Origin: Candidatus Hydrogenedentota bacterium
Lineage (GTDB): Bacteria > Hydrogenedentota > Hydrogenedentia > Hydrogenedentales > SLHB01
Direction of reading: 5' to 3'
Assembly (NCBI GenBank): GCA_045863295.1
Contig: BTWA01000006.1
Coordinates: 1 to 64,000, forward strand
DNA: 64,000 nucleotides
Positions 33,971 through 49,346 of this stretch are shown here, one piece after another (within the stretch, counting starts at the first letter, position 1; each line of letters opens with the position of its first letter). Position numbers and translations under genes: made by a program. The notes beneath the pieces were generated by a model. It made no database searches, had not been told where the DNA came from, and was given only the letters and a program-made list of their open reading frames with translations.

Positions 33971-34639
33971 CCTACTCCATACCCTGTGTGTTCGGTGCGG
34001 GCGTTTCTCGAGGGTTTCAGGTGGAGTTTTATTCTTGTCAATGGTCGCTTGGCCGGAATTTCCCCCTCCCCATTCTGTAAAGTATACTTACTTACTTGAA
34101 AGTGCTGGAAACGTTGGACACAGGTGGAAACGAAGTCCCTCCGGGGCTATTCTGGATATCAGCATAGCTCATTAAACTCCTATCAGAACCGCTGATTTTT
34201 ACACTAGGGCCGAAGGTGAATCTCTACGGCAAGGATTTGCTTGTGATGGTCAAGATATACTGAGACGATTGGTCCTCCCTGTTGATTGCTCACCCTTTCC
34301 AACCGTGCGTACTGGTTTACGATAGACTCGTCAAGGAATTACCGCTCATAAATACTAGAGATTGGGGTTTTTCATGTGTCTTGTGTAGCCTAATGGAACA
34401 GGCCGGACACTCAATTCGCGCCAATATGGCCCAGATTCAACGAGTATGTTATTTATTACCTCAGATAGCCAATACTGGGGTCATTTAGCAATCTCGGAAA
34501 ATTGTATTTTTGTGCGTTTCTTGCACTCATGTGTGTTTTTATCTGGAGCATGATTCAAGGTGCTGTATTGACGGGATCATTCCAAGGGCGTACTCTTGAT
34601 GCAAATCGCGGAGTCCACCACCCCGATCAGGACGCGTGT

Positions 34640-36721
34640 ATGATGCCGGAAGACATTCAGGATAATCCGAGTGAGAGCACTTCGTGTTCTTTTAAAAGAA
34701 GGTGCCGCGCTTTAATCAGTGCCTTATTGTCTGTGATGATCCTGACCCGAGTAAGCAGTTCCGTTTTTTTCGGTACATTCCTGATCGCGTATGCAGCACC
34801 CCCGGTTGGCGAGCCTGGTTTCTTCATCAACCCTGCCCCAGCACCCTCCCCGGGGACCGTGGTGTTGCAAACCACGCGATTTCATCCTGGAGAGGTCCAT
34901 GTACTTTCTTGGAAAATGAAGGTCGATGGTGCTAAGACATGGCGATTTCGTTCGCCATTTGCCGGTGTTTCAATTGAGTACTTCGATGTTTCTGGTGTTC
35001 CTATTGCGTCTCAAAGCAGGCATACCCACTGTTATTCGACGGTTTCGGAGCAGGATGCCTGGTGTGTGCTGGATGTTCCCTCCTCGGCAGACCGTTTGGA
35101 GGTGACATTTCGAATTGAGTCGGATGAGACACTTCCTGGCCATTTCTGGGTTGGACAGTTCCGGCTTGAGCCATTGGAATCTGCGAACAAGCCGGACGTC
35201 CACAGCAGCAAAGCGCTCTTGACGCTCTCCCCTGTGCTTGCGGATGGAACGCCCACACCGGCCCGCCTCTATCTCAAGGATTCCTATGGACTTCCGGCCG
35301 ATGTGCCGTTTACATTTGAATTCGACGGGGGGAAACTGGGTTTTCACCTGTCCTCTCTTCATTTAAACCGCTTCGCGGTTTTGCCGGGGACTTATGAAGT
35401 TGTTGCCATGAAAGGGTTTGAATACAAGCCTGTTCGTACGACAGTGACGCTGGAGGCGGGCGAGTCAAAGAACGTTGAACTCATTCTCGAACCTGCCTTT
35501 GATGCATCGTATCGGAATTGGTATTCCGGGGATCATCACACTCATCTATTCCGCCACGCCAGCACTGTACATCCGTTCATGAACATCGATGATGTCTACC
35601 GGATTGCGCAGGGTGAAGGACTGGCCTTTGTGCCATTCATGGGTGCGGATCGGGTTTCTGAGCCATTGAAAGTCCGTTCGGAACCTGGTTTTCTCGGCTG
35701 GGCCACCAACGAATTGACCCGGGATCTATGGGGTCACATCTGCCCCATAGGATTTGACGTGCCGGCACTGCCTGAATATGGCAACTTATGGCCGATGAAC
35801 GTCGACTACATGGCTGCGGCCGAATCGGCTGGTGGCGCGATTGCCTATGCCCATCCCTATGCCCGATTCAATCCGGAGTCCATAGCTTCTGCGGTCTCCG
35901 ATCCGGAATCCGGCCATGCGGCCCGGGAACTGCCGTTGGCGGCGGCCCTTGGCCACCGGTTCACCATCGACATGCTGACCAAGGAAGGGTTTGGGTCGAA
36001 TTTTGGAATGAAACTGCGGGACTATTTCCGGTTGCTGAACCTGGGGTTTCAACTTGGCGTATCCGGTTCCACGGATTTTCATGCGGACCAGGGCCGGGGA
36101 ATCATTGGTGCCATGCGTACGTATGTTCACGCCGATCCGTTTACGTGGCCGGCCGTTGCCCAAGCCTACCGGGAAGGCCGGACCTTTGCCACGAACGGTC
36201 CCCTGTTGTTTCTGTCGGCCGGGGCGTTTCAACCGGGAGACACGGTAACCCTGGAGGCGGAAGGCGAATTGACCGTCGCGGTGGAGGCATTCAGCCATTG
36301 GGGCCTGACCGGAGCGACCCTTTGGTACAACGGCCGTGCCGTGGAAACCTGGCGGGCTCAAGGCGATTTGGCATTACTTCGCGAGCATACGTTTAAAGTT
36401 TCCCATTCCGGATGGGTAGTGCTGAGTGCGACCGGGCCGGCACATGACGAATTGACCCACGCGCCGGAAGGTGTGCCGACGGTGGATGGGCAGTTTGCAA
36501 TCACGAGTCCCCTTTATGTCACGGTTGTCGGCCGCCCTGCCCCCGCGGATCCTGAGGCGGCCCGTTATTTCATGGCGTGGGTGGATAACGCGAAGACGGC
36601 CTTTGAAACGGCCTGCGCTTCTTCGGCCGCGAAGGGCAATCCTCTCCCCGAGGCGATCCGGGATCAGGCGCTGGCCCGGTTTGCGGAGGCGCGGTCTGTG
36701 TATTTTCGCCTGTCGGACTAG
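34640..36721 (+). CDS. CehA/McbA-family (PHP-like) metallohydrolase
   Basis: 'WYSGDHHTH', 'AHP', 'SGSTDFH', 'RTYV', 'GRTFATNGP'; start uncertain. Confidence 0.75.
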   Translation: MMPEDIQDNPSESTSCSFKRRCRALISALLSVMILTRVSSSVFFGTFLIAYAAPPVGEPGFFINPAPAPSPGTVVLQTTRFHPGEVHVLSWKMKVDGAKTWRFRSPFAGVSIEYFDVSGVPIASQSRHTHCYSTVSEQDAWCVLDVPSSADRLEVTFRIESDETLPGHFWVGQFRLEPLESANKPDVHSSKALLTLSPVLADGTPTPARLYLKDSYGLPADVPFTFEFDGGKLGFHLSSLHLNRFAVLPGTYEVVAMKGFEYKPVRTTVTLEAGESKNVELILEPAFDASYRNWYSGDHHTHLFRHASTVHPFMNIDDVYRIAQGEGLAFVPFMGADRVSEPLKVRSEPGFLGWATNELTRDLWGHICPIGFDVPALPEYGNLWPMNVDYMAAAESAGGAIAYAHPYARFNPESIASAVSDPESGHAARELPLAAALGHRFTIDMLTKEGFGSNFGMKLRDYFRLLNLGFQLGVSGSTDFHADQGRGIIGAMRTYVHADPFTWPAVAQAYREGRTFATNGPLLFLSAGAFQPGDTVTLEAEGELTVAVEAFSHWGLTGATLWYNGRAVETWRAQGDLALLREHTFKVSHSGWVVLSATGPAHDELTHAPEGVPTVDGQFAITSPLYVTVVGRPAPADPEAARYFMAWVDNAKTAFETACASSAAKGNPLPEAIRDQALARFAEARSVYFRLSD

Positions 36722-36824
36722 GGCGGCGATGCCCCCCCACTTCATTCCGCAGCCGCCCCGCAGGGTGATACCATGCACCATTCGGTCTGGGTATCTCTTA
36801 CAACTCTTACGCGGAGGGTCAGTC

Positions 36825-38645
36825 ATGCGCTGCCGAGCGTACACCTTGGTTCTGCTTGTTGCCTTGCTGTTTTCCAGTTTGGTCAAGGCGCAATCGCAGC
36901 CCTCTGGTCCAGGTACGGTGGAAGGGGTGGTGTACGGACGCGATGCCTCCCTCCCGCTGCCGCGAACACTGGTATTTTCAGTGAGTCCCGACAAGATCCT
37001 GGCCAATGCCGAAGCGTGGAAAGCGCAGGGCGTCGGCGGGTTCTTTCTGGAGGGTGTGGCCAGCGAGTGGTCCAGCGATGTGTGGGCGACCGACAAGAAG
37101 CCACACACGATCGGCGCGAGCGACGAAACGTTTCAGAAGGTGCGGGAAGTAAACGCCCTGTGCAAGCGGCTCGGCATGGTGACTTATCTGAAGATTGTCT
37201 ATGCGAATCCGTTGGAGTGGTTTAACGACACGGCGTGGCAACACATCAACCACCACTTCCGGCAGTTCGCGATCTTTGCGCGCGCCGCGGGTTGCCGCGG
37301 GGTTGCACTTGATATCGAGTATGTGGGCCAACAATTCGCGTTTGACTGGGAGGGCTATACGTATGATGGGTATACGCGGAAGGATCTGATCCGGACCATT
37401 CGCGAGCGGTCCGCCGGACAACTTCGGGCGATGTACGACGAGTTTCCAGAAATGGAGTTCCTCGTGCTGCCCGAAGGCGGCATTCATCTGGGGACTCACA
37501 TACAGACGTCGTGGATCGAAGTGGCGGCGGAACGTGACGCGCCCGGGGGCGTACACTTCTTCATGGAAGCCACGTATACGTCGTCGCACCTCGACCGCTA
37601 TCTCGCGTACACCAGCGCGACGAATCTTCTGTTTCGCCGTCAGTTGAGCGAACGTGGGCGGGAGTACTGGGCGCGGCGGTGCACGCTTGCCGCGGGCACC
37701 TGGCCGACCGGATTCGACATTGGGGCGAATCATGACTCTTCCCTCACCCCGACGGAACTGCGCCAAAGTTTCGCTGGTGCGCTGATGGTGTCGCCGAAGT
37801 TCAATTGGGTTTACGTCGACCGGTACGGTGAGCACCACGTGGGCAACGTTCCCGAAGACTATGAAGGCAAGACCGATTTTGCGATGGTGGCGGAGGTGTT
37901 GGGCAACCGCGAAATCGTGCTCGATGATCGCTACAAACGAATTGCCCTTGCCTTGCGCGGCCTCCCTCCCACCGATCCGGCCGCGGATCTGGGGATCGCG
38001 GCCGTGCCCCGGTTCATGCTGCCGCATGGCACGCCCACAATCGACCTCGTGCCTTCGACGTCGGTCGGCGCGGCGGAAACGGAACACGCATGGGACATTG
38101 CGATGGCGTACTACGAGGGGGAATCGCAGGATCTGCAGGCGATTTTTCAACCGATCCGGGATTGGCGTCTCATCGGACCGTTTCCAAGCGGCGACGGGCT
38201 TACGGGGCACGATGCCGTGTACGGGCCGGAAAAGGAAATTGATTTAACGGCGGCGTACGAGGGTGCGAACGGATCGGTGGCGTGGCAGCCGTTCCGCCTT
38301 GCGGACGGCGCACTGGGCATTGATTTCAAACCCATGTTCACACCGAACGAAAACGCGGTGGCGTATGCGTTGACGTATGTGGAGTCGCCGGTGGAACAAG
38401 CCGTGCAAATCCGCTTCGCGTCGAACGACGCAGGCAAGTTGTGGGTGGGCGGCAAACTGGTCAACGATTTTAATCGGGAAAGTTGGTCGGTGTTGGATCG
38501 CGACATCGTCGAGGTGACGCTGCCCAAGGGCAAGACGCCGGTTTTATGCAAGGTGACGAACGGGATCGGCGCGTGGACGTTGGTGGTGCGAATCACGGAC
38601 AAGGACGGCGAGCCGGTGAAAGGGTTGGTGTTCAGTGGGGAATGA
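36825..38645 (+). CDS. secreted hypothetical protein (GH-like barrel plus PA14-like C-terminal domain)
   Basis: Signal peptide, 'GVALDIEY', 'WRLIGPF', 'SNDAGKLWVGG'; GGAGG RBS. Confidence 0.6.
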   Translation: MRCRAYTLVLLVALLFSSLVKAQSQPSGPGTVEGVVYGRDASLPLPRTLVFSVSPDKILANAEAWKAQGVGGFFLEGVASEWSSDVWATDKKPHTIGASDETFQKVREVNALCKRLGMVTYLKIVYANPLEWFNDTAWQHINHHFRQFAIFARAAGCRGVALDIEYVGQQFAFDWEGYTYDGYTRKDLIRTIRERSAGQLRAMYDEFPEMEFLVLPEGGIHLGTHIQTSWIEVAAERDAPGGVHFFMEATYTSSHLDRYLAYTSATNLLFRRQLSERGREYWARRCTLAAGTWPTGFDIGANHDSSLTPTELRQSFAGALMVSPKFNWVYVDRYGEHHVGNVPEDYEGKTDFAMVAEVLGNREIVLDDRYKRIALALRGLPPTDPAADLGIAAVPRFMLPHGTPTIDLVPSTSVGAAETEHAWDIAMAYYEGESQDLQAIFQPIRDWRLIGPFPSGDGLTGHDAVYGPEKEIDLTAAYEGANGSVAWQPFRLADGALGIDFKPMFTPNENAVAYALTYVESPVEQAVQIRFASNDAGKLWVGGKLVNDFNRESWSVLDRDIVEVTLPKGKTPVLCKVTNGIGAWTLVVRITDKDGEPVKGLVFSGE

Positions 38646-38760
38646 AAGAATGTGAATCTCGCGCGGAGGCGCAGAGAGGTGGCCGGGTGGATCGCCGGCG
38701 TGTGTAGAAACCTGCCGCTGCAGCCTTTGACCTTGCTGTGGTTTGGGGAGAATCTCCGCT
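38615..38760 (+). repeat. 146-bp direct repeat, left copy (right copy 45491-45636)
   Basis: Ungapped manual alignment, 128/146 identical. Confidence 0.9.
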
Positions 38761-38837
38761 CAGGTTTACTCTGATCGATAATCATCTTATGCCCGGCATC
38801 GCTGTGGTGTTCACTGATTTCGTATCCCATGTTGACT
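38735..38837 (+). CRISPR. mini-array: near-consensus repeat, 30-nt spacer, degenerate repeat
   Basis: Repeat 38735-38770 (34/36); spacer 38771-38800; GCTGTGGT restarts at 38801, exactly 66 nt after the first repeat. Confidence 0.8.
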
Positions 38838-38928
38838 CGTCAATGTCCCCTATAGTCTGGCTTTTCTGTTGCATTTTCTTAGCGGATTGAAACAAGGGTA
38901 TATGATGGATTTGCGCTGTTTGCGCATT
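38837..38928. repeat. 92-bp dispersed repeat, inverted copy of 138-229
   Basis: 85/92 identity. Confidence 0.9.
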
Positions 38929-38945
38929 GTTCTTACTTCAAATTT

Positions 38946-38974
38946 TGGTTCATCCTCGCGTGTGTGGGGAATGT
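38946..38974. repeat. solitary type I-E-like CRISPR repeat
   Basis: TGGTTCATCCTCGCGTGTGTGGGGAATGT resembles I-E repeats of the form CGGTTYATCCCCGC....GCGGGGAACAC. Confidence 0.55.
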
Positions 38975-39045
38975 TACTCGCCCGTCCCGTGGTAGACCAC
39001 CAGCGGTTCTCCGTTTTCATCCACCACATTCGAATCATCGTCTGG
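38974..39045 (-). pseudogene. fragment resembling a phage/plasmid polyvalent-protein ADP-ribosyltransferase domain
   Basis: Translates to 'SNVVDENGEPLVVYHGT' followed by a stop two residues later. Confidence 0.5.
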
Positions 39046-39438
39046 ATTGACAGAAAAAAATGGTGTGAAGTATCTGGGGATCGAGTCCAAGGGAACGCCG
39101 CAAGTTCCGTTGGCGACAGCGGCCCCGGTCTTGAGCGCCGCCGTCCGCACCTGGCGCCACTGCCCTGAATTCGGCCTCGACGGCTTTCCAGCCGGAGCCA
39201 GCAACTGTCCATGCTCCCCTCGGCCACCGAGAACACCGGCCATTGCGCATCTGGCCCGTCAGTGGTATCCTGTTTTTGGAATGGCGCTTGCCAAGATCCC
39301 GGAATCGTTGAGGCAGGTGTCGCCGGGTTGGGGTTCTCCGGGGTTCGCCCAATGCCTTCCCTTTCCCACACAATCCTCATGTTGGCCTGCCGTCCGGCGC
39401 TCAGGTACGGAAAATGCGTCCTTAACTTGCCGCTCACC

Positions 39439-39486
39439 AATGAAGGAATGTGAATTTCGCGCAGAGGCGCGGGGAGGTGGCCGGTT
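39439..39486 (+). repeat. third, partial copy of the 146-bp repeat
   Basis: AATGAAGGAATGTGAATTTCGCGCAGAGGCGCGGGGAGGTGGCCGG matches 38641-38686. Confidence 0.8.
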
Positions 39487-39510
39487 CATCCCCGCGTGTG
39501 TGGGGTTATG
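39482..39510. repeat. solitary type I-E-like CRISPR repeat (second)
   Basis: CGGTTCATCCCCGCGTGTGTGGGG; core near-identical to the 38946 copy. Confidence 0.6.
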
Positions 39511-39554
39511 GTACATCATTGAAGTTCAGACCACAGGCCACGCCTTAGGCGTGG

Positions 39555-40052
39555 CCTGTGGTCTGGGGAGAATCTCCGCTCAGGTATACTCTCACCGGAC
39601 ATCGACCCAAGCTCGGATAGGCTGTGGTCTGGGGAGAATCTCCGCTCAGGTATACTTCGCGGAATCCGGGGTGAATGACGAATGTGGCTGTGGTCTGGGG
39701 AGAATCTCCGCTCAGGTATACTTAGTGCTCTACGTAGCTTTATCTGGTCTGGGCTGTGGTCTGGGGAGAATCTCCGCTCAGGTATACTCAGGTCCATGCC
39801 GACGATCTCCGCTGGGCGGCTGTGGTCTGGGGAGAATCTCCGCTCAGGTATACTACTTCCGTTCGGCAACGTCTGCACAGTCTCGCTGTGGTCTGGGGAG
39901 AATCTCCGCTCAGGTATACTCGCCGCCCCCGAGGAACGTCGCGCGAGGCGGCTGTGGTCTGGGGAGAATCTCCGCTCAGGTATACTTGCGCAGGCACTTG
40001 GCAATATAGAGGCGACGCTGTGGTCTGGGGAGAATCTCCGCTCAGGTATACT
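39555..40052 (+). CRISPR. type II-C CRISPR array: 8 repeats of 36 nt, 7 spacers of 30 nt
   Basis: GCTGTGGTCTGGGGAGAATCTCCGCTCAGGTATACT at 39555 (G1->C), 39621, 39687, 39753, 39819, 39885, 39951, 40017. + orientation inferred from tracrRNA complementarity and the terminal TATACT. Confidence 0.98.
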
Positions 40053-40056
40053 TAGG

Positions 40057-40085
40057 CCCCGCGTAACCGTAAGCGTTACGCGGGG
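40057..40085 (+). terminator. hairpin just downstream of the array (likely pre-crRNA 3' end)
   Basis: CCCCGCGTAAC / GTTACGCGGGG perfect 11-bp stem; weak U-tract. Confidence 0.55.
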
Positions 40086-40202
40086 TTACTGAGTCATTTA
40101 ATGGAATTTTTGCCCCTAAATCTGTTAGAGTGCGGCTGTTAGGCCTTCGAAATAAATCGTATATGGAGACACGTGATGTCATATCGTCTGGCACTTAAAA
40201 TG

Positions 40203-40239
40203 ATCCGTCCGCCAATTAAACAGAAATTGGCGGACGGAT
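40203..40239 (-). terminator. hairpin terminating the 53-aa gene
   Basis: ATCCGTCCGCCAATT / AATTGGCGGACGGAT perfect 15-bp stem 9 nt after the stop; followed by CATTTT on the - strand. Confidence 0.7.
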
Positions 40240-40248
40240 GTTCCGGAA

Positions 40249-40410
40249 TTACTTCTGACAGTCTCCAGCGGTGTCCTTTGCCTTGCACTGATTGCATAGT
40301 TCTCCCGAAGTCGGCTTTGTGGAAGATTCCACATAGTTGGAAGTCGGCCATAAGGAACAGTTTTTGCAACAATGCCAGGCGTCCTTGTCCTTCTTTCTGC
40401 GGTATGGCAT
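40249..40410 (-). CDS. 53-aa Cys/His-rich, probably Zn-binding protein (below the ORF-track cutoff)
   Basis: MPYRRKKDKDAWHCCKNCSLWPTSNYVESSTKPTSGELCNQCKAKDTAGDCQK; RBS GGGAGGTG; own promoter and terminator. Confidence 0.8.
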   Translation of the reverse strand: MPYRRKKDKDAWHCCKNCSLWPTSNYVESSTKPTSGELCNQCKAKDTAGDCQK

Positions 40411-40470
40411 ACGTGTCACCTCCCTTCACGCAAAATTCTCTATATAATTGGCCTTAACCTAGATGCCATT

Positions 40471-40499
40471 ATATTATCAGGGCCAAGTGAGAAAGTCAA
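40471..40499 (-). promoter_or_regulatory. promoter of the 53-aa gene
   Basis: TTGACT-N17-TAATAT with TGn extension; overlapping TATAAT 3 nt further on. Confidence 0.7.
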
Positions 40500-40516
40500 T
40501 CTATTCGAATGCAGCA

Positions 40517-40582
40517 TGTTTGATGTCGTCTTTATGGCCTTAACCTGCTGTGGTTTGGCTTGACGCTCTGCTCAGGTGTACT
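40517..40582 (+). ncRNA. putative crRNA-like regulatory guide (spacer-like segment plus degenerate repeat at 40547-40582)
   Basis: Repeat 28/36 to consensus; preceding 12 nt TGGCCTTAACCT identical to 40449-40460; 5' end unknown. Confidence 0.65.
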
Positions 40583-40638
40583 GCAAAGCGCGTGCATATC
40601 TCAGTTCGAGATTGCACGCGTTTTTGCTCGCGCAGAAA

Positions 40639-40983
40639 TCAAAAAAACTGCATCTGCTCCGGAGGTTCTTCTGCAACGCGCCGCTTTTTCCCGATAAAGA
40701 TTTCCATTTTTGCGAACTGCTTGTCGGTGACCGCCAACAGTCTAACATGCCCTTCGGGAGGCAGGGCCAACCTCACCCGTTTTCGATGGACTTTGGCCGC
40801 CTCTTCGGACGGGCAGTATCGCGCATAGACCGAGAACTGCATCATTTGAAACCCGTCCTTCAGCAATTCGTTTCGGAACTGCGCGTACTTTCTTCGGGCA
40901 TCTTTGGTGGTGACGGGTAGATCAAAGAGGGCGAACAGCCACATGCCTTTGTATCCCGAGACTTCGAATCGTTGTTGGGTCAT
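40639..40983 (-). CDS. cas2: CRISPR-associated endonuclease Cas2
   Basis: 'MWLFALFDLP...Y..FR..LLKDGF.M.QFSVYAR...LP..G.VR.L.VTDKQF'. Confidence 0.96.
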   Translation of the reverse strand: MTQQRFEVSGYKGMWLFALFDLPVTTKDARRKYAQFRNELLKDGFQMMQFSVYARYCPSEEAAKVHRKRVRLALPPEGHVRLLAVTDKQFAKMEIFIGKKRRVAEEPPEQMQFF

Positions 40984-41200
40984 GGGAACCCATATTCAGT
41001 TTCGGTCACCTGCCTAAATCTAGCCATCTGCTGCACCGCAGGGCGACCCAACTTTTTGTGCAGGAGTAAGGTTCACCCTCTCCCAAGCCACTGTTTGGGA
41101 GTGAGCCAAGTCGGATTAGCACAGCATCTGTGCCATGTCGAGTATTCCTTCTGGCGTTGATTCGTGTCTCGCTCAAAGTTGAATTGGACGGTGAACCACG

Positions 41201-42091
41201 TCAGAGTTCTGGCAGAATCAGCGTCCTTCTCTTTCCAAGGTAAACTTTTGCCAAGGACGATGCCGTGCGATTCAATATGTCAAAGAGGGTTCTTTCTTCG
41301 CCTTTGATCGTAAAGCGCTGGATGAGCGCGGCCACAATGACACGTTTGGCTTCGGTGTCGAGTTGCTGTTCCATTCCTTCCCTGCTTTGAACCAATTCGA
41401 CCACGGCTTTGTCGACAAGCGGTCGAAACGGTTCCATGAGATCCGAGGCGAGCGGAAAATTGTCGTAACGATTATGGTGGTGTAACCCAAGTCCCGGGTG
41501 CAGTCCCGCCGCGCAAATGGCGCGTCCAGTGGTGGCGCGGAGAACGCCGTAGCCGTAATTGAGATAATTATTTTCGACTCCTGCTTCCGCTCCGCGTCTA
41601 AATTCGCGGTTGCCGAAGAGTTTTTTCCAGTAGCGTACCGCCGCTTGAGCTTCCTGGTTATCTGGATCGCCGGAACGGACACGGGGAACCAAGGCTGTAA
41701 GGCCTGCGTCGTCACCGTGCATCGCAAGTAGTAGTCGAGACTGAGCACCTATTTTGGCGCGCACTAATTGCCGCCATAGTCTTTTTCGAACGGAAAGTCC
41801 TGACTCTGCCTGTTTGGAAAAGCGTTCAGACTGCAAATGGTGGCTCTGCAAAGGCAATAATATTCCGACTGGCGAGTGCCGACCATCGCACACAATACAG
41901 GATGAACCCTTGGCCATCAGACCGGCCAGTACTGCACCCGTAATTGTTATATGCGGATGGCCGAGCACTAATACACCTACTTCATCCAACGGCGCTTGGG
42001 AGGTAAGCGATTGTTGTTCGACTATCAACTGATCGTTGTGTACCTTGACCTTACCTGACGCGTTGGCAATGTCAATTATTCGATTAGTCAT
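41201..42091 (-). CDS. cas1: type II Cas1 integrase
   Basis: 'SGDPDNQEAQAA..YW..LF', 'LNYGY.VLRA', 'GLHH', 'LASDLMEPFRP.VD'. Confidence 0.97.
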   Translation of the reverse strand: MTNRIIDIANASGKVKVHNDQLIVEQQSLTSQAPLDEVGVLVLGHPHITITGAVLAGLMAKGSSCIVCDGRHSPVGILLPLQSHHLQSERFSKQAESGLSVRKRLWRQLVRAKIGAQSRLLLAMHGDDAGLTALVPRVRSGDPDNQEAQAAVRYWKKLFGNREFRRGAEAGVENNYLNYGYGVLRATTGRAICAAGLHPGLGLHHHNRYDNFPLASDLMEPFRPLVDKAVVELVQSREGMEQQLDTEAKRVIVAALIQRFTIKGEERTLFDILNRTASSLAKVYLGKRRTLILPEL

Positions 42092-45000
42092 TGGAGTGTC
42101 GAAGCGCTCCTAACGGCGAAACTGAAAGTTTGCGCGATGAGCGTCGTCTAAGCGCGTTCAGGCGAGGCATCTCCCAGCCTCCTGAAGAAATTATCTCCTT
42201 TTTCAGTCTAGCGTCAACGAGCCCAGCAAGGCTGACACGATCCTTCGAAATCCCTCTCACTAATGCCAAAGTAGTGGAACCATCTTCCATATTCATTTGC
42301 AGCACGTCTCCAATCGCCAAGCTCATGACAAACCGCCTTCCCTCGCCGTGATCTCGCTGAACGATGGGCTGCTTGTTTCGAAGCCGCTGCAGAGCCGTGT
42401 ATTGATCGACAATGATGTCTTCCCACTTGGGTTCGCCTTTTTTGTCGAGCACCTCGATGATTTCCATGTGATGGTTTGACGCGGGCACGACGTGGCGGTT
42501 GCGACCGGTTTGTCCAATCTGAAATGTTGAGGCACGTTTCCGGATTCTCACGCGTTTGATAGGGACCGAGCCGCCGGCTTTCCGAGAAAGTTTGGGTAAG
42601 TTGTCTTTGTCTGCGAATGCTTTCTTGGTGTCGTCTGTTCCCAACTCGAGCAACTTCTGCTTTACGGCGTCATATACAGCGCGGTCGACAATGGCCTCGA
42701 CCTCATTCGCGCTGATACCGTCGATGGGCTTACGGACATGCACGCAAGGTTTGCCTTCTTCATCGACGTATATTTTGCTGTACAGCGTTTCCTCATGGAG
42801 GGGTCCGCTAACGCGTCGTGAGACTCGATGGGACACGATCATGGAGGCAATGGCGGTCTGGACATCCTGCAGAAATGTATTCCATGGGATTTCCATTTTC
42901 TTCCACCATCGGCGCATTTGCTCGTCGCCGCCTTTTTTCGCGGCGTCGCTCAATTGTTTGAGTGTTCGCGTATCGGTGAGTGCGATGGCGATGGCATCAA
43001 TCGCGTGGTGGCGGTGGTCGTCGCGCGACTTCCGGGGGCCGTCCGAGAGAATGCGGTTTAGATTCCATGCGTTGCGCAAGATGGCAGTGACCTCTCCCCT
43101 GCCCGGTTGAACGCGCTTCTTCCCGGCTGCGTCGACGATTCCGCCATAGAGCAAGCCCAGAAACCGGGAGGCGATAGTGGACACGTAGCGAGTATCGCTA
43201 AGTTGGCGGTTGGTGAACGAGTCGAGGCTTTCAAGGGACTTCATTTTGAAGCGGCGCAGTTTGGCTTCGCGCGCGTCGCCTTGAAAACGTCCTACGCGGG
43301 TGATGATAGCGTCCCACTCTGGAGACTCTCCGTAGGCCTCCCATGGAGTTTTGTTACGCTTTCTGTTGCGGTTCTCCTCGTGATAACAGAGGGTCTTGTT
43401 CATAAACGAGTCATCAAGGCATCGTGCAAAAGGGAGTATGTGCTCTACATCGAACTGTGATTGCTCTCCGATGAGATTATTGATGCCGATGGATTTGCCG
43501 GTGTAGGGGCATTCCCACCCGCATTCCTCGGCCAGGAGGATGCGTTCGATATCCTCTCGGCTTGGATGGGGGTTGCCGGTTTTCTTATGGATTTGTGCGG
43601 CGGCGGCCTCGCGTTGTTTTTGGCGTTGGCGGTTCTTCTTCCAGGCTTCTTCCCGTTTTTTTCGGGGCTTTTTCATATCGCGCGCGAGTTCGATCCTGAT
43701 TAAATCGGGTTTTCCATGTTCGCGAATGATGGCGTTGACCACTTTGCGCAATTCGGTAAGGGTGCGTTGCACCATGGGGTTGCGAAGGACAATTCCTGAG
43801 TCTTCAAGCATAGGAAGCGCGGTCAAGGGGCGATCCTCGAATCGTTGTGAGCCGTATTCATTCTTGATCGCGGTCTGGAGGAATTCCCCTTGTTCCAATC
43901 TTGGGACGAGCTTAGCGAGTGCTTGCCGGGAAAACCGGCTGTAGCCGGGTTCCAATCGGATTTGGGCCAGATCCTCAGCGGTGTCCGAGTCGAGCTTCCA
44001 GCGTTTGATGCCGCGAGATTTCAATGTTTCCTGTTTGACCGTGCTCAAGATCTCTTCCACGAGTTCGTTTTGTTCCCGGGGTGGCATTTGCAGCCAGCGT
44101 TCGCCGAGAATGGCGTGCAGTTTTGCGGCCGTTCGGTTGCCGGGCAGCTTTTCCTCGCCCCCGGCCTCCAGATTAAATTTGGTGGTCTTCTTGAGCTTCA
44201 AAAGCGTTCGAATAGCGGAGAATTTGGCGTCTCCTTGAAAACTCAACTTTGAAATGATGGCCTCGCGCTGTTCCGCCGTGAGTGGAATCGTCTCGCCGTC
44301 TTCCAGAATGCAAAGATCGTTGATTCGCTGCAGCATGCGAATTTTTTGCGAATCCAGAATGGCGATAGGGGCTCTCTTTCGTCCGAGTTCCAATTCACAT
44401 TGACCGATGAGATTTTTTTGCGATTTCAAAGGCCGTTGGCGAAAGATGCATCGATATATCTCTTGTTTTGCAGCCTCGGATAACAAATCGGGATGGTGTG
44501 CCATCTGCGCATTCCAGATGGCATCAAATTCGGCTTTGTACATGGCACGAGAGGTCCAACGGCTGCGGATTCGGGATTCGTGTGGATTCAGTCCCGCGAA
44601 GTATTCACCCAGCGTTCTCGCGCGGGCCTCGTTCATCATGGTTTGGAGCTGAGAGATTCCTTCCTTGACCTGTCCTTCTTCTTCATCGTCCTTGGCCGTT
44701 GATTTCCGATTGGTCTCAAACCCGCGGCGGTGCCCCAAGTGATAAATGGCGCGGCCAAGGGCGTGGGCTTTAAGAGGATGGTCTAAAGCGCGTGCGCGGA
44801 GGAAGTAGGGCAGTTGATCGAGCAGGTTTGAGTCGATGCCTATCGATTTATACGAATCGTAGAGTTGGGCATCTAGCGTCTTGAAAAATTGATGCCTGGC
44901 CATATGATCGCGGATATCGCCTGACGGGAGCAGACCCATACGTTGCAGCGCGGCGGCAGTCTTGGCCATTCGGCGTCTGCGACGGTCGGCCTGCTTGCGT

Positions 45001-45209
45001 TGTTGCCGTGCCTCGCGGCGTTTGGCGTTTCGTGATTCGTCTTTGCCTTGTTCAATGTCCTGTGCTGTGCCGTCAACGCCGGGATCAAAGACTCGGGCGC
45101 CAGAGCGTATCAGCCGAGTGGGTTTTCCGGCTGCGTACTCGATTAGTGCCCAACCGACTGAGTTTGTGCCCAGATCAAGCCCAAGCACCATTTCGTTGTT
45201 TGTGCCCAT
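42084..45209 (-). CDS. cas9: type II-C Cas9 (1041 aa)
   Basis: RuvC-I 'LGLDLGTNSVGWA', Arg-rich bridge helix, 'NPMV', RuvC-II 'IELARD', HNH 'VEHILP..NKTL..N..K.NKTP', RuvC-III 'HHAIDA'; no csn2 or cas4. Confidence 0.98.
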   Translation of the reverse strand: MGTNNEMVLGLDLGTNSVGWALIEYAAGKPTRLIRSGARVFDPGVDGTAQDIEQGKDESRNAKRREARQQRKQADRRRRRMAKTAAALQRMGLLPSGDIRDHMARHQFFKTLDAQLYDSYKSIGIDSNLLDQLPYFLRARALDHPLKAHALGRAIYHLGHRRGFETNRKSTAKDDEEEGQVKEGISQLQTMMNEARARTLGEYFAGLNPHESRIRSRWTSRAMYKAEFDAIWNAQMAHHPDLLSEAAKQEIYRCIFRQRPLKSQKNLIGQCELELGRKRAPIAILDSQKIRMLQRINDLCILEDGETIPLTAEQREAIISKLSFQGDAKFSAIRTLLKLKKTTKFNLEAGGEEKLPGNRTAAKLHAILGERWLQMPPREQNELVEEILSTVKQETLKSRGIKRWKLDSDTAEDLAQIRLEPGYSRFSRQALAKLVPRLEQGEFLQTAIKNEYGSQRFEDRPLTALPMLEDSGIVLRNPMVQRTLTELRKVVNAIIREHGKPDLIRIELARDMKKPRKKREEAWKKNRQRQKQREAAAAQIHKKTGNPHPSREDIERILLAEECGWECPYTGKSIGINNLIGEQSQFDVEHILPFARCLDDSFMNKTLCYHEENRNRKRNKTPWEAYGESPEWDAIITRVGRFQGDAREAKLRRFKMKSLESLDSFTNRQLSDTRYVSTIASRFLGLLYGGIVDAAGKKRVQPGRGEVTAILRNAWNLNRILSDGPRKSRDDHRHHAIDAIAIALTDTRTLKQLSDAAKKGGDEQMRRWWKKMEIPWNTFLQDVQTAIASMIVSHRVSRRVSGPLHEETLYSKIYVDEEGKPCVHVRKPIDGISANEVEAIVDRAVYDAVKQKLLELGTDDTKKAFADKDNLPKLSRKAGGSVPIKRVRIRKRASTFQIGQTGRNRHVVPASNHHMEIIEVLDKKGEPKWEDIIVDQYTALQRLRNKQPIVQRDHGEGRRFVMSLAIGDVLQMNMEDGSTTLALVRGISKDRVSLAGLVDARLKKEIISSGGWEMPRLNALRRRSSRKLSVSPLGALRHSND

Positions 45210-45228
45210 GGTACGGTCTGCTCCCCGC

Positions 45229-45256
45229 TTGACAATCCACTCTGGTTATGTATAAT
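45229..45256 (+). promoter_or_regulatory. tracrRNA promoter
   Basis: TTGACA-N16-TATAAT, 7 nt before the anti-repeat. Confidence 0.8.
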
Positions 45257-45262
45257 AGGGGT

Positions 45263-45373
45263 CAGTATACCTGAGCGGAGATTGTCCTCCAAATCACAGT
45301 AAGGACTTTCAAGTCCGCGGGCAACGTCCTACGGGACGTCCATTGCGCCTCCCTGTTGGGGCGCTTTTTTTTT
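45263..45373 (+). ncRNA. tracrRNA
   Basis: Anti-repeat 45264-45300 (first 20 nt perfectly complementary to the repeat 3' part), hairpins GGACT-TTCA-AGTCC and ACGTCC-TACG-GGACGT, GC-rich terminator stem plus T-tract. Confidence 0.92.
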
Positions 45374-45490
45374 GTTGGGGAGCGTGGGTTGGCAAGGGAT
45401 TGGGTTTTGGGTCCAGTGTGTCTTTTGGGCTGCATGGGTGTTTAGAGACTTCGCGTGGGCAACTTGTGAGATTCATGTCTACTTGCAAGG

Positions 45491-45636
45491 GGTGAAAGGG
45501 TTGGCGTTCAGTGGGGACTGAAGGAACGTGAATCTCGGGCAGAGGCGCAGGGATGTGGCCCGGTGGATCGCCGGCGTGTGCAGAATTCTGCGGCTGCACC
45601 GTTTGACCCTGTTGTGGTCTGGGGAGAATCTCCGCT
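45491..45636 (+). repeat. 146-bp direct repeat, right copy, ending in a 3'-degenerate CRISPR repeat (from 45611)
   Basis: 128/146 identical to 38615-38760; GTTGTGGTCTGGGGAGAATCTCCGCT. Confidence 0.9.
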
Positions 45637-45817
45637 TACATACACGGGGAAAGTGTGCGGTGAGCCGTTTTCTTGAACAGTAACCGTTCTGGTCGCGTTT
45701 GGTGTCATGGTCTGAAGTCATGCCACACCCCTTGGGAAATCAACGCACGGCATAGAGCCCTTGGCGGAATGCTCAGACTGCATTTGCTAGCCGCGTGCTG
45801 CGTCTTTGTTTGAGTGG

Positions 45818-46213
45818 CTATTTCTTCTGTGCGAATTTCGCGCTGCGTTCGGCGACGAGTTGGTTGATGGTTTCGTCTGCGGGGCGGATTTCGAAGGGTC
45901 CGACTTTTACGCCGGGGTGTTTGGACATGAGTTCGATGGCGTGGTTCATGTCGCGGGCTTCGAGCAGGAGGATGCCGCCGAGGACTTCCTTGGTTTCGGA
46001 GAAGGGTCCGTCGGTGATTTTAATTTCGCCGTTTTTGTTGCTTAGCGTGACGGCTTTGTTGGCGAAATCGAGTGCTTCGCCGCCGAGGAAGTGTCCTCCG
46101 CGCCGCAGTTCGTCGTCGTAGGCAAAGCATTCTTCCATCATTTTTTGCGCGTCTTCGGGGGGCATGTTGGCGAAGGCGTCTTCGTTGTAGTATCCGAGGC
46201 ATACGAATTTCAT
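45818..46213 (-). CDS. YciI/DGPF-domain protein
   Basis: '[14 protein letters not shown]', 'EIRP'. Confidence 0.9.
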
Positions 46214-46358
46214 GGGGGCACCTCTTCGATTGTCGGGTTTCTTGGGCGCTGAGCGTCCCTGGTTGCCGTGCTTATTTGCTCATTAGTCGAACGGGCGGGG
46301 CCGAGATCGACACGGCAGAGCCGTTTTGTTTGTGGCGGCTGTTTTGTGCACGGCGTCG

Positions 46359-47348
46359 TTATCCCAGCCACTCGGGGTGGTAGGCGGTGGCGTCGTAGGC
46401 CGGGGTGGTTTTGAATCGTTCAAACTTGCCTGATTTTGCGAATTGAACGGTGCGGCTGAGGAGCGCGGCGGTTTCGGTTTCGGTCATAGGTTTGAAGTTG
46501 CGCACGGTTTCGAGGTTCTGTTCGAAGTGGGCCATGGTCTGCATGCCGGAAATGACGACGGAGGTGGGCAGGGTCATGGCGTAGTGCAGGCATTCTTGAA
46601 CGGTGACGGCATTGGTTTCGAGGGCGACTCCGCCCGCGACGGATTTCATGCCGAGCACGCCTATCCCCCGCTCCACCAACACGGGGAGGACGCCGTCGCG
46701 GAAACTCCGGAAGTGGGCATCGAGCACGTTGAGGGGCATTTGCACGGTGTCAAAAGTGAAGCCGTTGGCATCGGCGACTTCAATCATGCGGAGGTGCACG
46801 GCGGGGTCTTTATGTCCGGTGAATCCGATGTACCGGATCTTCCCTGCTTCCTTCGCGGCGTAGAGGGCTTCCATGGCGCCGCCTTCGGCGAAGATTCGGT
46901 CGCCGTCGTCCATGCGGATCATTTCGTGGTGTTGCAGGAGATCGATGCGATCGGTCTGGAGGCGTCTGAGGCAATCATTGAGTTGGGATTCGGCGGAGGC
47001 CTTGGTGCGGCCGTCGATCTTGGTCATGAGGAATACCTTGTCGCGCAGGGGACCTTTGAGGGCTTTGCCCATGCGTTCTTCACTGCCGCCGGCGTGGTAG
47101 TCCCAGGAGTTGTCCATGAAGTTGATGCCCGCGTCGATGGCGGCGTGGATGATACTGATGCCTTCGGCTTCATCGGGCACGCCGATGTGGTAGCCGCCGA
47201 GGCCGAGGAGCGAGACGCGTTCGCCGGTGCGGCCGAGGATGCGGTATTTCATTTCGCCTTCGGCGCCTTCGGTCTGCGGTACGGCCATGGCGTGACTGAT
47301 GGTTATTCCTGTGGCGGCCGTGGCGGCCAGGAATTCGCGGCGATTCAT
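46359..47348 (-). CDS. aldo/keto reductase with Tat signal
   Basis: MNRREFL, 'LGRTG..VS.LGLGG', 'GINFMDNSWDY..G.SE', 'GKIRYIG'. Confidence 0.9.
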   Translation of the reverse strand: MNRREFLAATAATGITISHAMAVPQTEGAEGEMKYRILGRTGERVSLLGLGGYHIGVPDEAEGISIIHAAIDAGINFMDNSWDYHAGGSEERMGKALKGPLRDKVFLMTKIDGRTKASAESQLNDCLRRLQTDRIDLLQHHEMIRMDDGDRIFAEGGAMEALYAAKEAGKIRYIGFTGHKDPAVHLRMIEVADANGFTFDTVQMPLNVLDAHFRSFRDGVLPVLVERGIGVLGMKSVAGGVALETNAVTVQECLHYAMTLPTSVVISGMQTMAHFEQNLETVRNFKPMTETETAALLSRTVQFAKSGKFERFKTTPAYDATAYHPEWLG

Positions 47349-47612
47349 GGGATGTGTCCTCCTGAAGTCGAGGTATCGCGGTTCAGCGGCAGTGTATCAC
47401 AGAGAGGCGATGCCGCCGGTACGGAGTTCTCGGCGTCTTTCGCTTCATTACGTTTTCGTAATCCTTTCGGGAGTCTGCTCTTCACGTTCGTAGTGTCCAA
47501 TGGTGATGTGGCCGGAAGTATGGGGCCGGGCATTCCTGGTAGTACGAGTCGTGAAAGGAGTCTAGCCGCGCGCATTCGGGGTTGAGTGGTGCGCGCCGGG
47601 AAGGGAGGCGTT

Positions 47613-49346
47613 ATGCGTATGCAATCCAGAAGTCGCGTTGTTGGAGCGTTGATGCGTTGGACGTTTCATTTGCCGCACGGGGCGGCTGCGTTGCTGCTGG
47701 CCGTGGTGTTGTCAGGGTGTCCGATGACAACCGAGCGATCGCTTGCGAACGCGGGCGATGAATCCGAAGATGTGGTTGTGACACCAGCGCCCGAAGACGG
47801 GGAAACCCCGGAACATTTGAACAACGGTGGCGGCACACCTCCGCCGAACAACGGAGGTGGCACACCTCCTCCGAATAATGGTGGTGGCACACCTCCGCCG
47901 AACAATGGTGGTGGCACACCTCCGCCGAATAACGGTGGCGGCACACCTCCTCCGAACAACGGAGGTGGCACACCTCCTCCGAACAATGGTGCTGGCACTC
48001 CTCCGCCGAACAATGGTGGTGGCACTCCTCCGCCGAACAATGGTGGTGGCACTCCTCCGATGGGTGTGGATCCGCGTTCGCAACTCATGATCACGGACCT
48101 GCGTGTAGTAGAGGATCCAGTTCGAACCAATCCTGCCTCGGGAGATCAGGGCGTGTGGACATTTAAGTACTTGATCGAGCAGATGGCCGGGACTCGCAAT
48201 CCTTCGGCGTTCGCACTGGAATGGTTGCGTCTGTGGGAACAGGACCAGGTTGTCAACGGGCGCACTTCTTCGGCGCGTCCGTCGATTCGACCACGCGTGA
48301 TTGATCCATGGATGCAGGTGAGCGGTGGAAGCCAACTCGATCTTTCGTTGGCCCCATTCAAGCTGCTGGCGATTGTAAATCGAATCGACTTACGCGAACA
48401 TGACGGCACAACGGTGGTGACGGGTGGCGAAGGGCGATTTGTGTTCGGCGTTTTGGCTCCCGATGGAACTCCCCTGCTGCCGGCAGCGGGTTCGGGACGA
48501 AGCGGTTTCCTTGTCATCTTTGAATATGAACTTCCGGCGACGACGATGGACGGGTTGCGCGATTGGGCGCTGGCGTGGCGGGGACTGGGATCGTCTCCCC
48601 TGGGTTCGCCGGAGTACAACGCGGCGTTGGAGCAGATTACGCGCAGATTCAGCGATCGAGGCAGTGCGCTGGGCAAGCCGAACGGCAATGCACTCAACCA
48701 GATTCGAACGAATGAAATAGCATTGCGCGCGCCGTGGGAAATGCGGGAATTTGTAATCGATGGGACATCGGGATTTTTGCGGCAGACGACAGTGGCGTTG
48801 ACGCCCGATACGATTGAACTCAACGGTACACAAGCGTTCGCCGACCTGATCAATGATGGCGAGGCGGACATTTTGGCAGGGACCGGCCAACTGTCTCCGG
48901 ATGCATTTGCGGCTTCGTCATTGGTGGGCCCATTTCGCGAAGGCGATTTTCCGGACTTCGCCGATCGGACGTATACGATTCTGCCACTGGCAAACGGGCT
49001 TTTTGATGTGGCGTGGAGCGCAGCGGGAATTGTGAACAACGATGCGCGTCACGAGTTTGCCCTGAATACGTGCAGTGGGTGCCACCGCGCGGAAACGCGC
49101 ACCGGGTTTGTCATGGTCGGTTTTCCGGCGGATCATACCCTGCCGGAGTCGTTAGGGAGGCCCGCGGCGTTGTCTGGATTCCTGCGTGGTGTGGCTGTGC
49201 CGGATCCGGTGGAGCCGGAGACCGTGCGGCACTTCGCGGATCTGCAACGCCGGAAGCTGGAGTTTGAAGCCTTGCTGGCAAGTTTTGGCGAACAAGGCAG
49301 CGGCCCAGGACCCCGAGGCGAACACCGCCCCCGTTTTGTGCACTGA
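47613..49346 (+). CDS. lipoprotein with Pro/Gly/Asn repeat linker and a single CxxCH motif
   Basis: Lipobox 'VVLSG-C', (NNGGGTPPP)x9, 'TCSGCH'; start uncertain. Confidence 0.7.
47820..48059 (+). repeat. 27-bp coding tandem repeat, about 9 copies
   Basis: AACAAYGGNGGYGGCACWCCTCCKCCG-type units encoding NNGGGTPPP. Confidence 0.95.

Follow-up and report, generated by a model that had tools for sequence, protein, structure and literature searches.

A candidate natural guide for Cas9-mediated repression beside a small zinc-ribbon gene inserted in a type II-C CRISPR-Cas locus of Candidatus Hydrogenedentota

The 64-kb stretch of a Candidatus Hydrogenedentota genome analyzed here (contig BTWA01000006.1, positions 1 to 64,000; hereafter, the window) contains a complete type II-C locus of CRISPR repeats and CRISPR-associated (cas) genes, with cas9, cas1, and cas2 all encoded on the minus strand. 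Between the array and cas2 lies an insertion that carries a small gene for a 53-aa protein with two CxxC pairs, the promoter of this gene, a guide-like unit, and a second hairpin with a TTTTT stretch. The guide-like unit (positions 40535-40582) consists of a solitary degenerate repeat, referred to below as the psi-repeat, and the 12 nt directly 5′ of it, which recur at the predicted transcription start of the small gene. Judging from sequence comparisons, there is about an even chance that this unit is a solitary guide-repeat akin to the small CRISPR-Cas-associated RNAs (scaRNAs) and that, together with the trans-activating CRISPR RNA (tracrRNA), it would bring Cas9 to bind without cutting and to repress the apparently captured gene. 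The features discussed below are listed in Table 1.

Table 1. Features of the type II-C locus and of the insertion between its array and cas2
Feature	Positions	Strand	Remarks
CRISPR array, eight 36-nt repeats separated by seven 30-nt spacers	39555..40052	+	Strand is that of the CRISPR RNA
Hairpin terminator 3′ of the array	40053..40095	+	Homologous to those of related loci; closest to that of locus L099
Lineage-specific insertion, ~540 bp	40096..40638		Between the terminator of the array and the stop codon of cas2; left boundary approximate
Terminator hairpin of the small gene	40203..40239	-	Strong
53-aa CxxC...CxxC gene	40249..40410	-	Preceded by GGGAGGTG; homologues in many phyla
Weak promoter-like site, possible driver of the guide	40448..40477	+	9/12 matches
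Target copy of the 12-mer, TGGCCTTAACCT	40449..40460	+	Non-target-strand sequence; ~+5..+16 of the predicted transcript of the small gene
Flank on the PAM side, AGATGCCA	40461..40468	+	Directly after the target 12-mer
Predicted sigma-70-type promoter of the small gene, TTGACT-17-TAATAT, TG-extended	40471..40499	-	Promoter scan
12-nt guide seed, TGGCCTTAACCT	40535..40546	+	Flush with the 5′ end of the psi-repeat
Solitary degenerate repeat (psi-repeat)	40547..40582	+	28/36 to the array repeat
Hairpin with TTTTT directly 3′ of the psi-repeat	40583..40627	+	-26.7 kcal/mol; z -5.8; 0/200 shuffles as stable
cas2	40639..40983	-	Family match
cas1	41201..42091	-	Family match
cas9, 1041 aa	42084..45209	-	HNH_4, RuvC_III, Cas9_a; TIGR01865, E 4.7e-206
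tracrRNA: anti-repeat, stem-loops, T-run	45264..45372	+	Divergent from cas9

The guide-like unit and its target

The layout of the tracrRNA and its anti-repeat assigns the CRISPR RNA (crRNA) to the plus strand, so that the 3′ end of each spacer, beside the next repeat, forms the seed proximal to the protospacer-adjacent motif (PAM). The psi-repeat carries 8 substitutions relative to the 36-nt array repeat (positions 9, 13, 14, 15, 18, 19, 23, and 32), and the nominal 30-nt spacer preceding it (psi-spacer, positions 40517-40546) ends in the 12-mer. At the target, the 12-mer is followed by an 8-nt flank that covers the predicted start site of the small gene, and just 2 of the remaining 18 positions of the psi-spacer agree with the target. 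An earlier reading of this DNA, made from the sequence alone, had pointed to an isolated repeat variant between the array and cas2 and to the exact recurrence of its 12-nt 5′ flank, with identity ending on both sides and AGATGCCA coming next. The former is confirmed by position-by-position comparison and the latter by direct inspection of both copies; the assignment of these 12 nt to the PAM-proximal seed is also correct, given the plus-strand crRNA.

In the entire genome (6,335,068 bp), the 12-mer has no copies other than these two, nor does its 11-nt suffix, and no other copies of the 7-, 8-, and 9-nt suffixes of the seed are found within positions 38000-46500. When the CRISPR array and the tandem repeat near 47.8 kb are left out of the count, the window contains a single other exact 12-mer direct repeat within 150 nt. 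With the background this low, the probability that a chance copy would also abut any of the three solitary repeats in this locus is ~1e-4 or less, and, on this count, the match is not a product of chance. A 15-nt match of the psi-spacer on another contig (C20) was considered as a second target and rejected, being within coding sequence and missing the final two bases of the seed.

The promoter scan detected a sole good promoter-like site on the minus strand, whose position implies a transcription start near 40464 and places the 12-mer at about +5 to +16 of the transcript. The sequence-only reading had put the target there, and the scan bears it out to the extent that the promoter is a predicted one. 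That reading had also proposed pairing with the nontemplate strand, which is consistent with a guide that has the sequence of the plus strand and would pair with the minus strand, the nontemplate strand of this minus-strand gene.

Pairing of the psi-repeat with tracrRNA

The tracrRNA has a promoter of its own (TTGACA/TATAAT, positions 45229-45256), and its anti-repeat is a perfect match to the final 20 nt of the array repeat. Cofolding predicts a duplex of -56.6 to -58.0 kcal/mol for the array repeat with the anti-repeat, of -60.3 to -61.7 kcal/mol for an array repeat carrying T at position 9, and of -47.9 to -49.3 kcal/mol for the psi-repeat. In the duplex predicted for the psi-repeat, positions 1 to 12 are all paired, forming a perfect 12-bp lower stem, and are followed by an enlarged internal loop at positions 13 to 15 and an upper stem of 17 to 20 bp with two G-U pairs. 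By this prediction, the psi-repeat can pair with the anti-repeat of the tracrRNA. The repeat to which it is nearest is the ancestral repeat of the locus itself (7 differences), and random variants of the latter with 7 substitutions reach a mean of -37.5 kcal/mol, with 0.6% of them attaining the value of the psi-repeat.

The substitutions had been regarded in the sequence-only reading as nonrandom with respect to the tracrRNA. Two parts of that argument agree with the cofolding, which keeps both C23T and A32G, interpreted there as G-U wobbles, in paired positions and shows the cluster at positions 13 to 19 surrounding the internal loop of the canonical duplex. The same positions are also the most variable part of the repeat among related systems. 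The third part, in which C9T was a compensatory change, proved wrong, as T9 is the ancestral state, found in related repeats and in the solitary copy at 38735. The proposal that Cas9, the tracrRNA, and this guide silence the small gene loses that argument and retains its anatomical basis, namely, the unique seed match, a target over the transcription start, the intact lower stem, the terminator, and an intact Cas9 (as judged by its HNH, RuvC, and TIGR01865 matches).

As for the array repeats, their C9 is derived: the related systems, both older solitary copies, and the complement of the tracrRNA all point to T, so the working repeat mismatches its own tracrRNA at one position of the lower stem. 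Two other ideas about the psi-repeat were examined and rejected: that it is the native repeat of the lineage of the cas operon, given that the tracrRNA pairs best with the array-type repeat and not with the psi-repeat, and that it resembles a second II-C array in this genome (contig C27).

Transcription of the unit and a possible mechanism

In the proposed mechanism, the unit would be transcribed from the plus strand up to the hairpin at 40583-40627, which is unrelated to the terminator of the array. The psi-repeat would then pair with the tracrRNA, and the duplex would be loaded into the II-C Cas9. A 12-nt guide being too short for cutting, Cas9 would be brought to positions 40449-40460, at the start of the divergent 53-aa gene, and, if the flanking AGATGCCA is acceptable as a PAM, could block RNA polymerase there, keeping the gene silent as long as Cas9 and the tracrRNA are active. 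The cell might benefit from this silencing. The guide could be driven by a weak promoter-like site (TTGGCC at 40448, then TATATT or TATTAT up to 40477), with read-through from the array as an alternative source. The first hexamer of the weak site overlaps the target, so the guide might limit its own synthesis, with bound Cas9 also dampening the promoter of the guide.

An RNA of this kind would be complementary to the mRNA of the small gene as well as to the DNA strand, and it could instead pair through its 12 nt with the 5′ end of that mRNA (+5 to +16) and act posttranscriptionally, with or without Cas9. RNA targeting by Campylobacter jejuni Cas9 has been reported. A II-C scaRNA that acts with Nme1Cas9 on an mRNA leader in a PAM-independent manner has likewise been reported (PMC13431127). 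However, 12 bp located far from the ribosome-binding site (GGGAGGTG, with the Shine-Dalgarno sequence ~35 nt beyond the target 12-mer) would make a weak design for an antisense regulator, and antisense action leaves unexplained why the match is flush with a repeat that pairs with the tracrRNA. Antisense regulation is therefore improbable here.

Comparison with related loci

Twenty II-C loci of the same order, with Cas1 proteins 45 to 54% identical to that of the window, were available for comparison; cas2 was matched in 19 of them, and 18 were informative. In 17 of these 19 loci, the last repeat ends 50 to 73 nt before the last cas2 codon, with a terminator hairpin and no gene between; of the other two, one has a 169-nt gap and one ends at a contig edge and is uninformative. 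In the contigs of related organisms from two sludge runs, the last repeat is joined directly to cas2; these joints are of low identity and provide just a weak hint. The array of the window retains a terminator of the same kind (hairpin 40057-40085, after the last regular repeat, which ends at 40052), with a stem nearly identical to that in locus L099, and the ~540 bp that follow are unique in the genome. By this comparison, the small gene and the guide-like unit are parts of one insertion. The psi-repeat itself may be an old terminal repeat severed from the array, or it may have been brought in by the insertion.

The position of the psi-repeat bears on the main rival explanation, according to which the unit is a nonfunctional relic, that is, the decaying former cas2-proximal terminal repeat or debris of the insertion, and the 12-mer is a by-product of a rearrangement or of a former self-targeting spacer. 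Like a degenerate terminal repeat, the psi-repeat carries several substitutions (8, with loss of the TATACT box) and lies close to cas2, 56 nt from the stop codon and 59 nt from the last codon, which is inside the range seen in the 17 relatives. There are other signs of rearrangement at the locus (three leader copies and two further solitary repeats), and no second example of the unit was detected in the related loci, in metagenomes of the Joint Genome Institute (JGI), or in 133 genomes of the order. In contrast to a terminal repeat, it begins 494 nt past the last regular repeat, with a terminator and a gene between, and the array ends in its own conserved terminator homologous to those of the relatives, which argues that the psi-repeat is an extra unit. 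A relic also accounts poorly for the match. No simple mechanism would yield two 12-nt copies that enclose unrelated sequence at a distance of 86 nt: as a target-site duplication, they would border just 74 bp, and joining at a microhomology keeps a single copy. The decay of a full spacer match would not leave 0 of 12 mismatches beside 18 nt with 2 agreements, and a chance match flush with the repeat is disfavored by the estimate given above. On these grounds, a relic is unlikely, even as the strongest of the competing explanations.

A number of observations, some of them shared with the relic explanation, weigh against a regulatory guide. The module is a single occurrence. It is present in 0 of the 18 informative related II-C loci, the nearest of which has a Cas1 only 54% identical, this being the best Cas1 identity in both the order and the phylum genome sets. 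When the insertion was searched as DNA against the 133 genomes of the order, nothing beyond the coding region of the small gene was matched, and that in a single genome, where it is not beside cas genes. A Cas1 scan of JGI metagenomes yielded no close relative (4 loci with 35 to 45% identity). Strain-level contigs from four studies are identical over the parts of the region that they cover, so that covariation of seed and target is unreadable in them, and no RNA sequencing run was found to contain the stretch. As noted, the psi-repeat occupies the slot of the terminal repeat of the relatives, at 59 nt from the last cas2 codon. The plus-strand promoter is weak, and the promoter scan overall shows no enrichment over shuffled sequences (3 sites found, 1.3 +/- 1.0 expected); in the minimum-energy fold of the putative guide transcript, the seed is partly paired. 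Under a stricter null model of the repeat, in which one clustered patch of 5 changes is combined with 2 single changes, 4.3% of the variants match the stability of the psi-repeat (p about 0.04) and the lower stem is left untouched in 21%; because of this result, the retention of pairing is suggestive rather than strong.

Finally, searches of phages, plasmids, and IMG/VR turned up no protospacer for any of the seven spacers of the array. Two 20- to 23-nt matches in phage records (E = 6) and one 23-nt match in plasmids (E = 0.5) were taken as chance, and the 3′ 23 nt of each of the seven spacers gave 0 matches in IMG/VR, as did a 22-nt part of the psi-spacer in the protospacer search. There is no full match of any spacer in the genome itself, spacer 6 having two 14-nt 3′-anchored chance matches. 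The PAM-interacting part of Cas9 could not be aligned to those of solved Cas9 structures; the best alignment, to a Neisseria-type Cas9, covers residues 7 to 747 only.

The 53-aa zinc-ribbon gene

The small gene is real and conserved, as indicated by 13 homologues with 60 to 76% identity and 19 invariant columns in a large collection of proteins (all 13 candidates reached E <= 0.001) and by 49 homologous loci spread over the reference genomes of numerous phyla. Identity within the family is 55 to 76% between phyla, with one archaeal metagenome-assembled genome among the members, which makes it a highly conserved family that is nonetheless unannotated. The 53-aa protein has no named match in Pfam, NCBIfam, PADLOC, or ESM Atlas and a weak match to a PHROG of unknown function (best E 0.003 to 0.014). 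Its structure model has a mean predicted local distance difference test score of 90, and a Foldseek search of this model against PDB returned nothing. The best VIA-align match, to the N-terminal zinc domain of Ada, has a Z of 2.9 over 46 residues and is too weak for a fold name, and comparison with viral "Ada-like" proteins gives a template modeling score of about 0.6.

None of the 49 homologous loci has a tblastn match to the Cas9, Cas1, or Cas2 of the window, and a CRISPR-like array is nearby in one of them. Neighboring genes were scanned against Pfam for 121 open reading frames (ORFs) from 32 of the 49 loci, the other 17 being short contigs or the weakest matches. These neighbors include XRE-type helix-turn-helix proteins (5 loci), ImmA/IrrE peptidases (4 loci), DUF2188 proteins (3 loci), and integrases (2 loci), as well as IS1595, IS1, and DUF772 transposases, a resolvase, HNH and RadC proteins, Mu GemA, and a type ISP restriction enzyme. 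The mobile-element neighbors vary, and there is no constant partner gene among the 32 scanned loci. By its company, the small gene looks like one borrowed from mobile DNA.

This provenance fits with a different role for the psi-repeat, in which it came with the gene as a repeat mimic carried by mobile DNA that soaks up the tracrRNA or Cas9 and does not regulate the gene. Phage-borne Cas9 inhibitors resembling scaRNAs and single guide RNAs (sgRNAs) are indeed described in the accessible text of one report (10.64898/2026.06.01.729453). However, a scan of 467,751 nt around 50 homologous genes revealed no repeat-like sequence, the nearest repeat to the psi-repeat is the ancestral one of its own locus, and a decoy has no need for a seed match to its neighbor. 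Such a decoy is very improbable.

The upstream regions of the homologues bear on another explanation, in which a transcription factor, perhaps the zinc-ribbon protein itself, binds to both 12-mers, which bracket the promoter. The two sites form direct repeats on either side of the promoter, at a distance of 86 bp or about 8 helical turns, and the 53-aa protein has the weak likeness to the DNA-binding zinc domain of Ada mentioned above. Nevertheless, the 12-mer is found upstream of 0 of 45 homologues, which means that the repeat is not a feature of the gene family; even with up to 2 mismatches, the motif is present in 0 of 45 homologous loci, and an upstream direct repeat of at least 10 nt exists in only 4 of the 45. 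As the position flush with a repeat would also be roughly a 1-in-100 coincidence, a protein operator is the least probable of the explanations considered here and can be given very little credence.

A regulatory guide would raise the possibility of a Cas9 counterpart of CrePA, in which the 53-aa protein would harm or arrest the cell or act on invading DNA and would be kept off by Cas9, the tracrRNA, and the guide; the protein would then be turned on if the II-C system were lost or an anti-CRISPR inhibited it. The sequence-only reading had suggested such an addiction or anti-anti-CRISPR module, and this part of it fares poorly. The 53-aa protein has no toxin or defense family match in Pfam, NCBIfam, PHROGs, or PADLOC, and its 49 homologous loci are not beside cas9, cas1, or cas2. 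Strong toxicity is argued against by the homologues that stand alone in many genomes without a constant partner. The extension to a CrePA-like module is accordingly doubtful, much more so than repression itself.

Relation to known systems

Jiao et al. reportedly described, in 2021, noncanonical crRNAs in a II-C system. Repression by 11-nt guides without cutting is described for the long-form tracrRNA (tracr-L) and for the Francisella scaRNA, and mutations in the lower stem are said to abolish this repression, those in the upper stem having milder effects (10.1101/2020.05.21.102756, accessible part). In type II-A loci, scaRNAs that regulate Cas9, some of them encoded downstream of the array, are mentioned in the available text of 10.64898/2026.06.01.729453. 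The unit described here resembles the scaRNA of Francisella novicida (type II-B) and the II-A scaRNAs and tracr-L in being a solitary guide-repeat mimic within a type II locus that pairs (here, by prediction) with the tracrRNA and has a truncated guide (12 nt, against 11 nt in those systems) for a promoter or 5′ region, in some cases downstream of the array. It differs from them in belonging to a II-C locus and in having as its putative target an adjacent mobile-element gene from the same insertion rather than the cas9 promoter or a chromosomal virulence regulon.

Among type I systems, a repeat-like guide in CrePA (type I-F) controls a small toxic protein of phage origin (10.1101/2024.01.05.574328, available portion). 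As far as the accessible descriptions of CrePA and CreTA (types I-F and I-B) go, they share with the window a small gene of mobile origin that is located inside a cas locus and adjoins a repeat-like guide with a partial match to the promoter of the gene. Theirs, however, use Cascade/Csy and a psi-spacer between two psi-repeats, whereas here Cas9 and the tracrRNA would serve a single repeat, no second repeat-like unit having been found upstream of the psi-spacer. A further difference is that CreP is toxic and, in those descriptions, its homologues are nearly always in cas loci, whereas 0 of the 49 loci of the 53-aa family show a match to cas9, cas1, or cas2.

Mini-arrays that regulate cargo genes are another parallel. 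In the parts of Shmakov et al. 2023 that are accessible, they appear as cargo-promoter mini-arrays in type I-D, along with non-tracrRNA mini-arrays in about 6% of type II loci. These, too, are standalone repeat units whose spacers partly match promoters of non-cas cargo genes within CRISPR loci; the cargo cases described there are of type I-D, with no type II target, although the supplementary tables may list some. The scaRNA of Neisseria meningitidis, as far as the accessible text describes it, is likewise a small RNA linked to a II-C system that works with Cas9 on a host gene, but it is reported to act on mRNA, independently of tracrRNA and PAM, through an sgRNA-like fold of its own, whereas the unit in the window, a simple guide-repeat, would depend on the tracrRNA. 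In a literature search that left most subscription journals outside its reach, no type II guide that represses a neighboring cargo or toxin gene came up. Elements of this kind are already known, and what would be new in the window is a II-C, tracrRNA-dependent version controlling a captured mobile-element gene.

If the unit does act as a guide, a II-C Cas9 would be doing what type I effectors do with CreA, that is, holding a captured mobile gene under RNA-guided repression inside a CRISPR locus, and natural gene control by Cas9 would extend beyond self-regulation (tracr-L and the II-A scaRNAs) and the Francisella regulon. The arrangement would be a compact natural design of guide, target, and terminator within about 180 bp, it could provide a readout for Cas9 inhibition, as CrePA does for type I-F, and it would give a first functional handle on a widespread, unannotated family of 53-aa zinc-ribbon proteins from mobile elements. 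Should the CrePA-like extension also be true, Cas9 would be addictive, with population-level protection against elements that carry anti-CRISPRs, and the module would be the first of its kind for a class 2, tracrRNA-dependent effector.

Other features of the locus and its surroundings

The CRISPR-cas locus is bracketed by direct repeats of 146 to 156 nt with 88% identity (positions 38615-38770 and 45491-45646). Each comprises the 3′ end of an ORF (like the one at 36471-38645) along with a leader-like stretch and one solitary repeat (34/36 and 30/36), and a third leader-like copy (39439-39501) precedes the array. These flanking repeats suggest that the locus has been gained, lost, or exchanged by recombination. 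Where the array begins, the 5′ portion of its first repeat and the sequence just upstream pair over 28 nt with 1 mismatch, forming a near-perfect palindrome (39527-39565) that gave a spurious microRNA match in Rfam; the Rfam scan of positions 38000-46000 produced no credible match.

Two dispersed repeats lie between the solitary repeat at 38735 and the leader of the array, and both coincide with depth spikes in metagenome contigs. One of them (38838-38928, ~90 nt) has ~30 other copies in the genome, 25 of them at least 60 nt long, and the other (about 39226-39370) has several. Elsewhere in the genome, contig C27 carries a second II-C-like locus (about 38743-46000) with a 40-repeat array that directly adjoins cas2, and contig C24 carries a third array with 21 repeats (about 79736-82500). 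Upstream of the locus in the window, the ORF at 34502-36721 encodes a CehA/McbA metallohydrolase domain, and the ORF at 36471-38645, whose 3′ end belongs to the flanking direct repeat, has no family match. On the other side of the locus, a coding tandem repeat with a 27-nt period (47823-48060) lies inside the ORF at 47586-49346, which is without a Pfam match.

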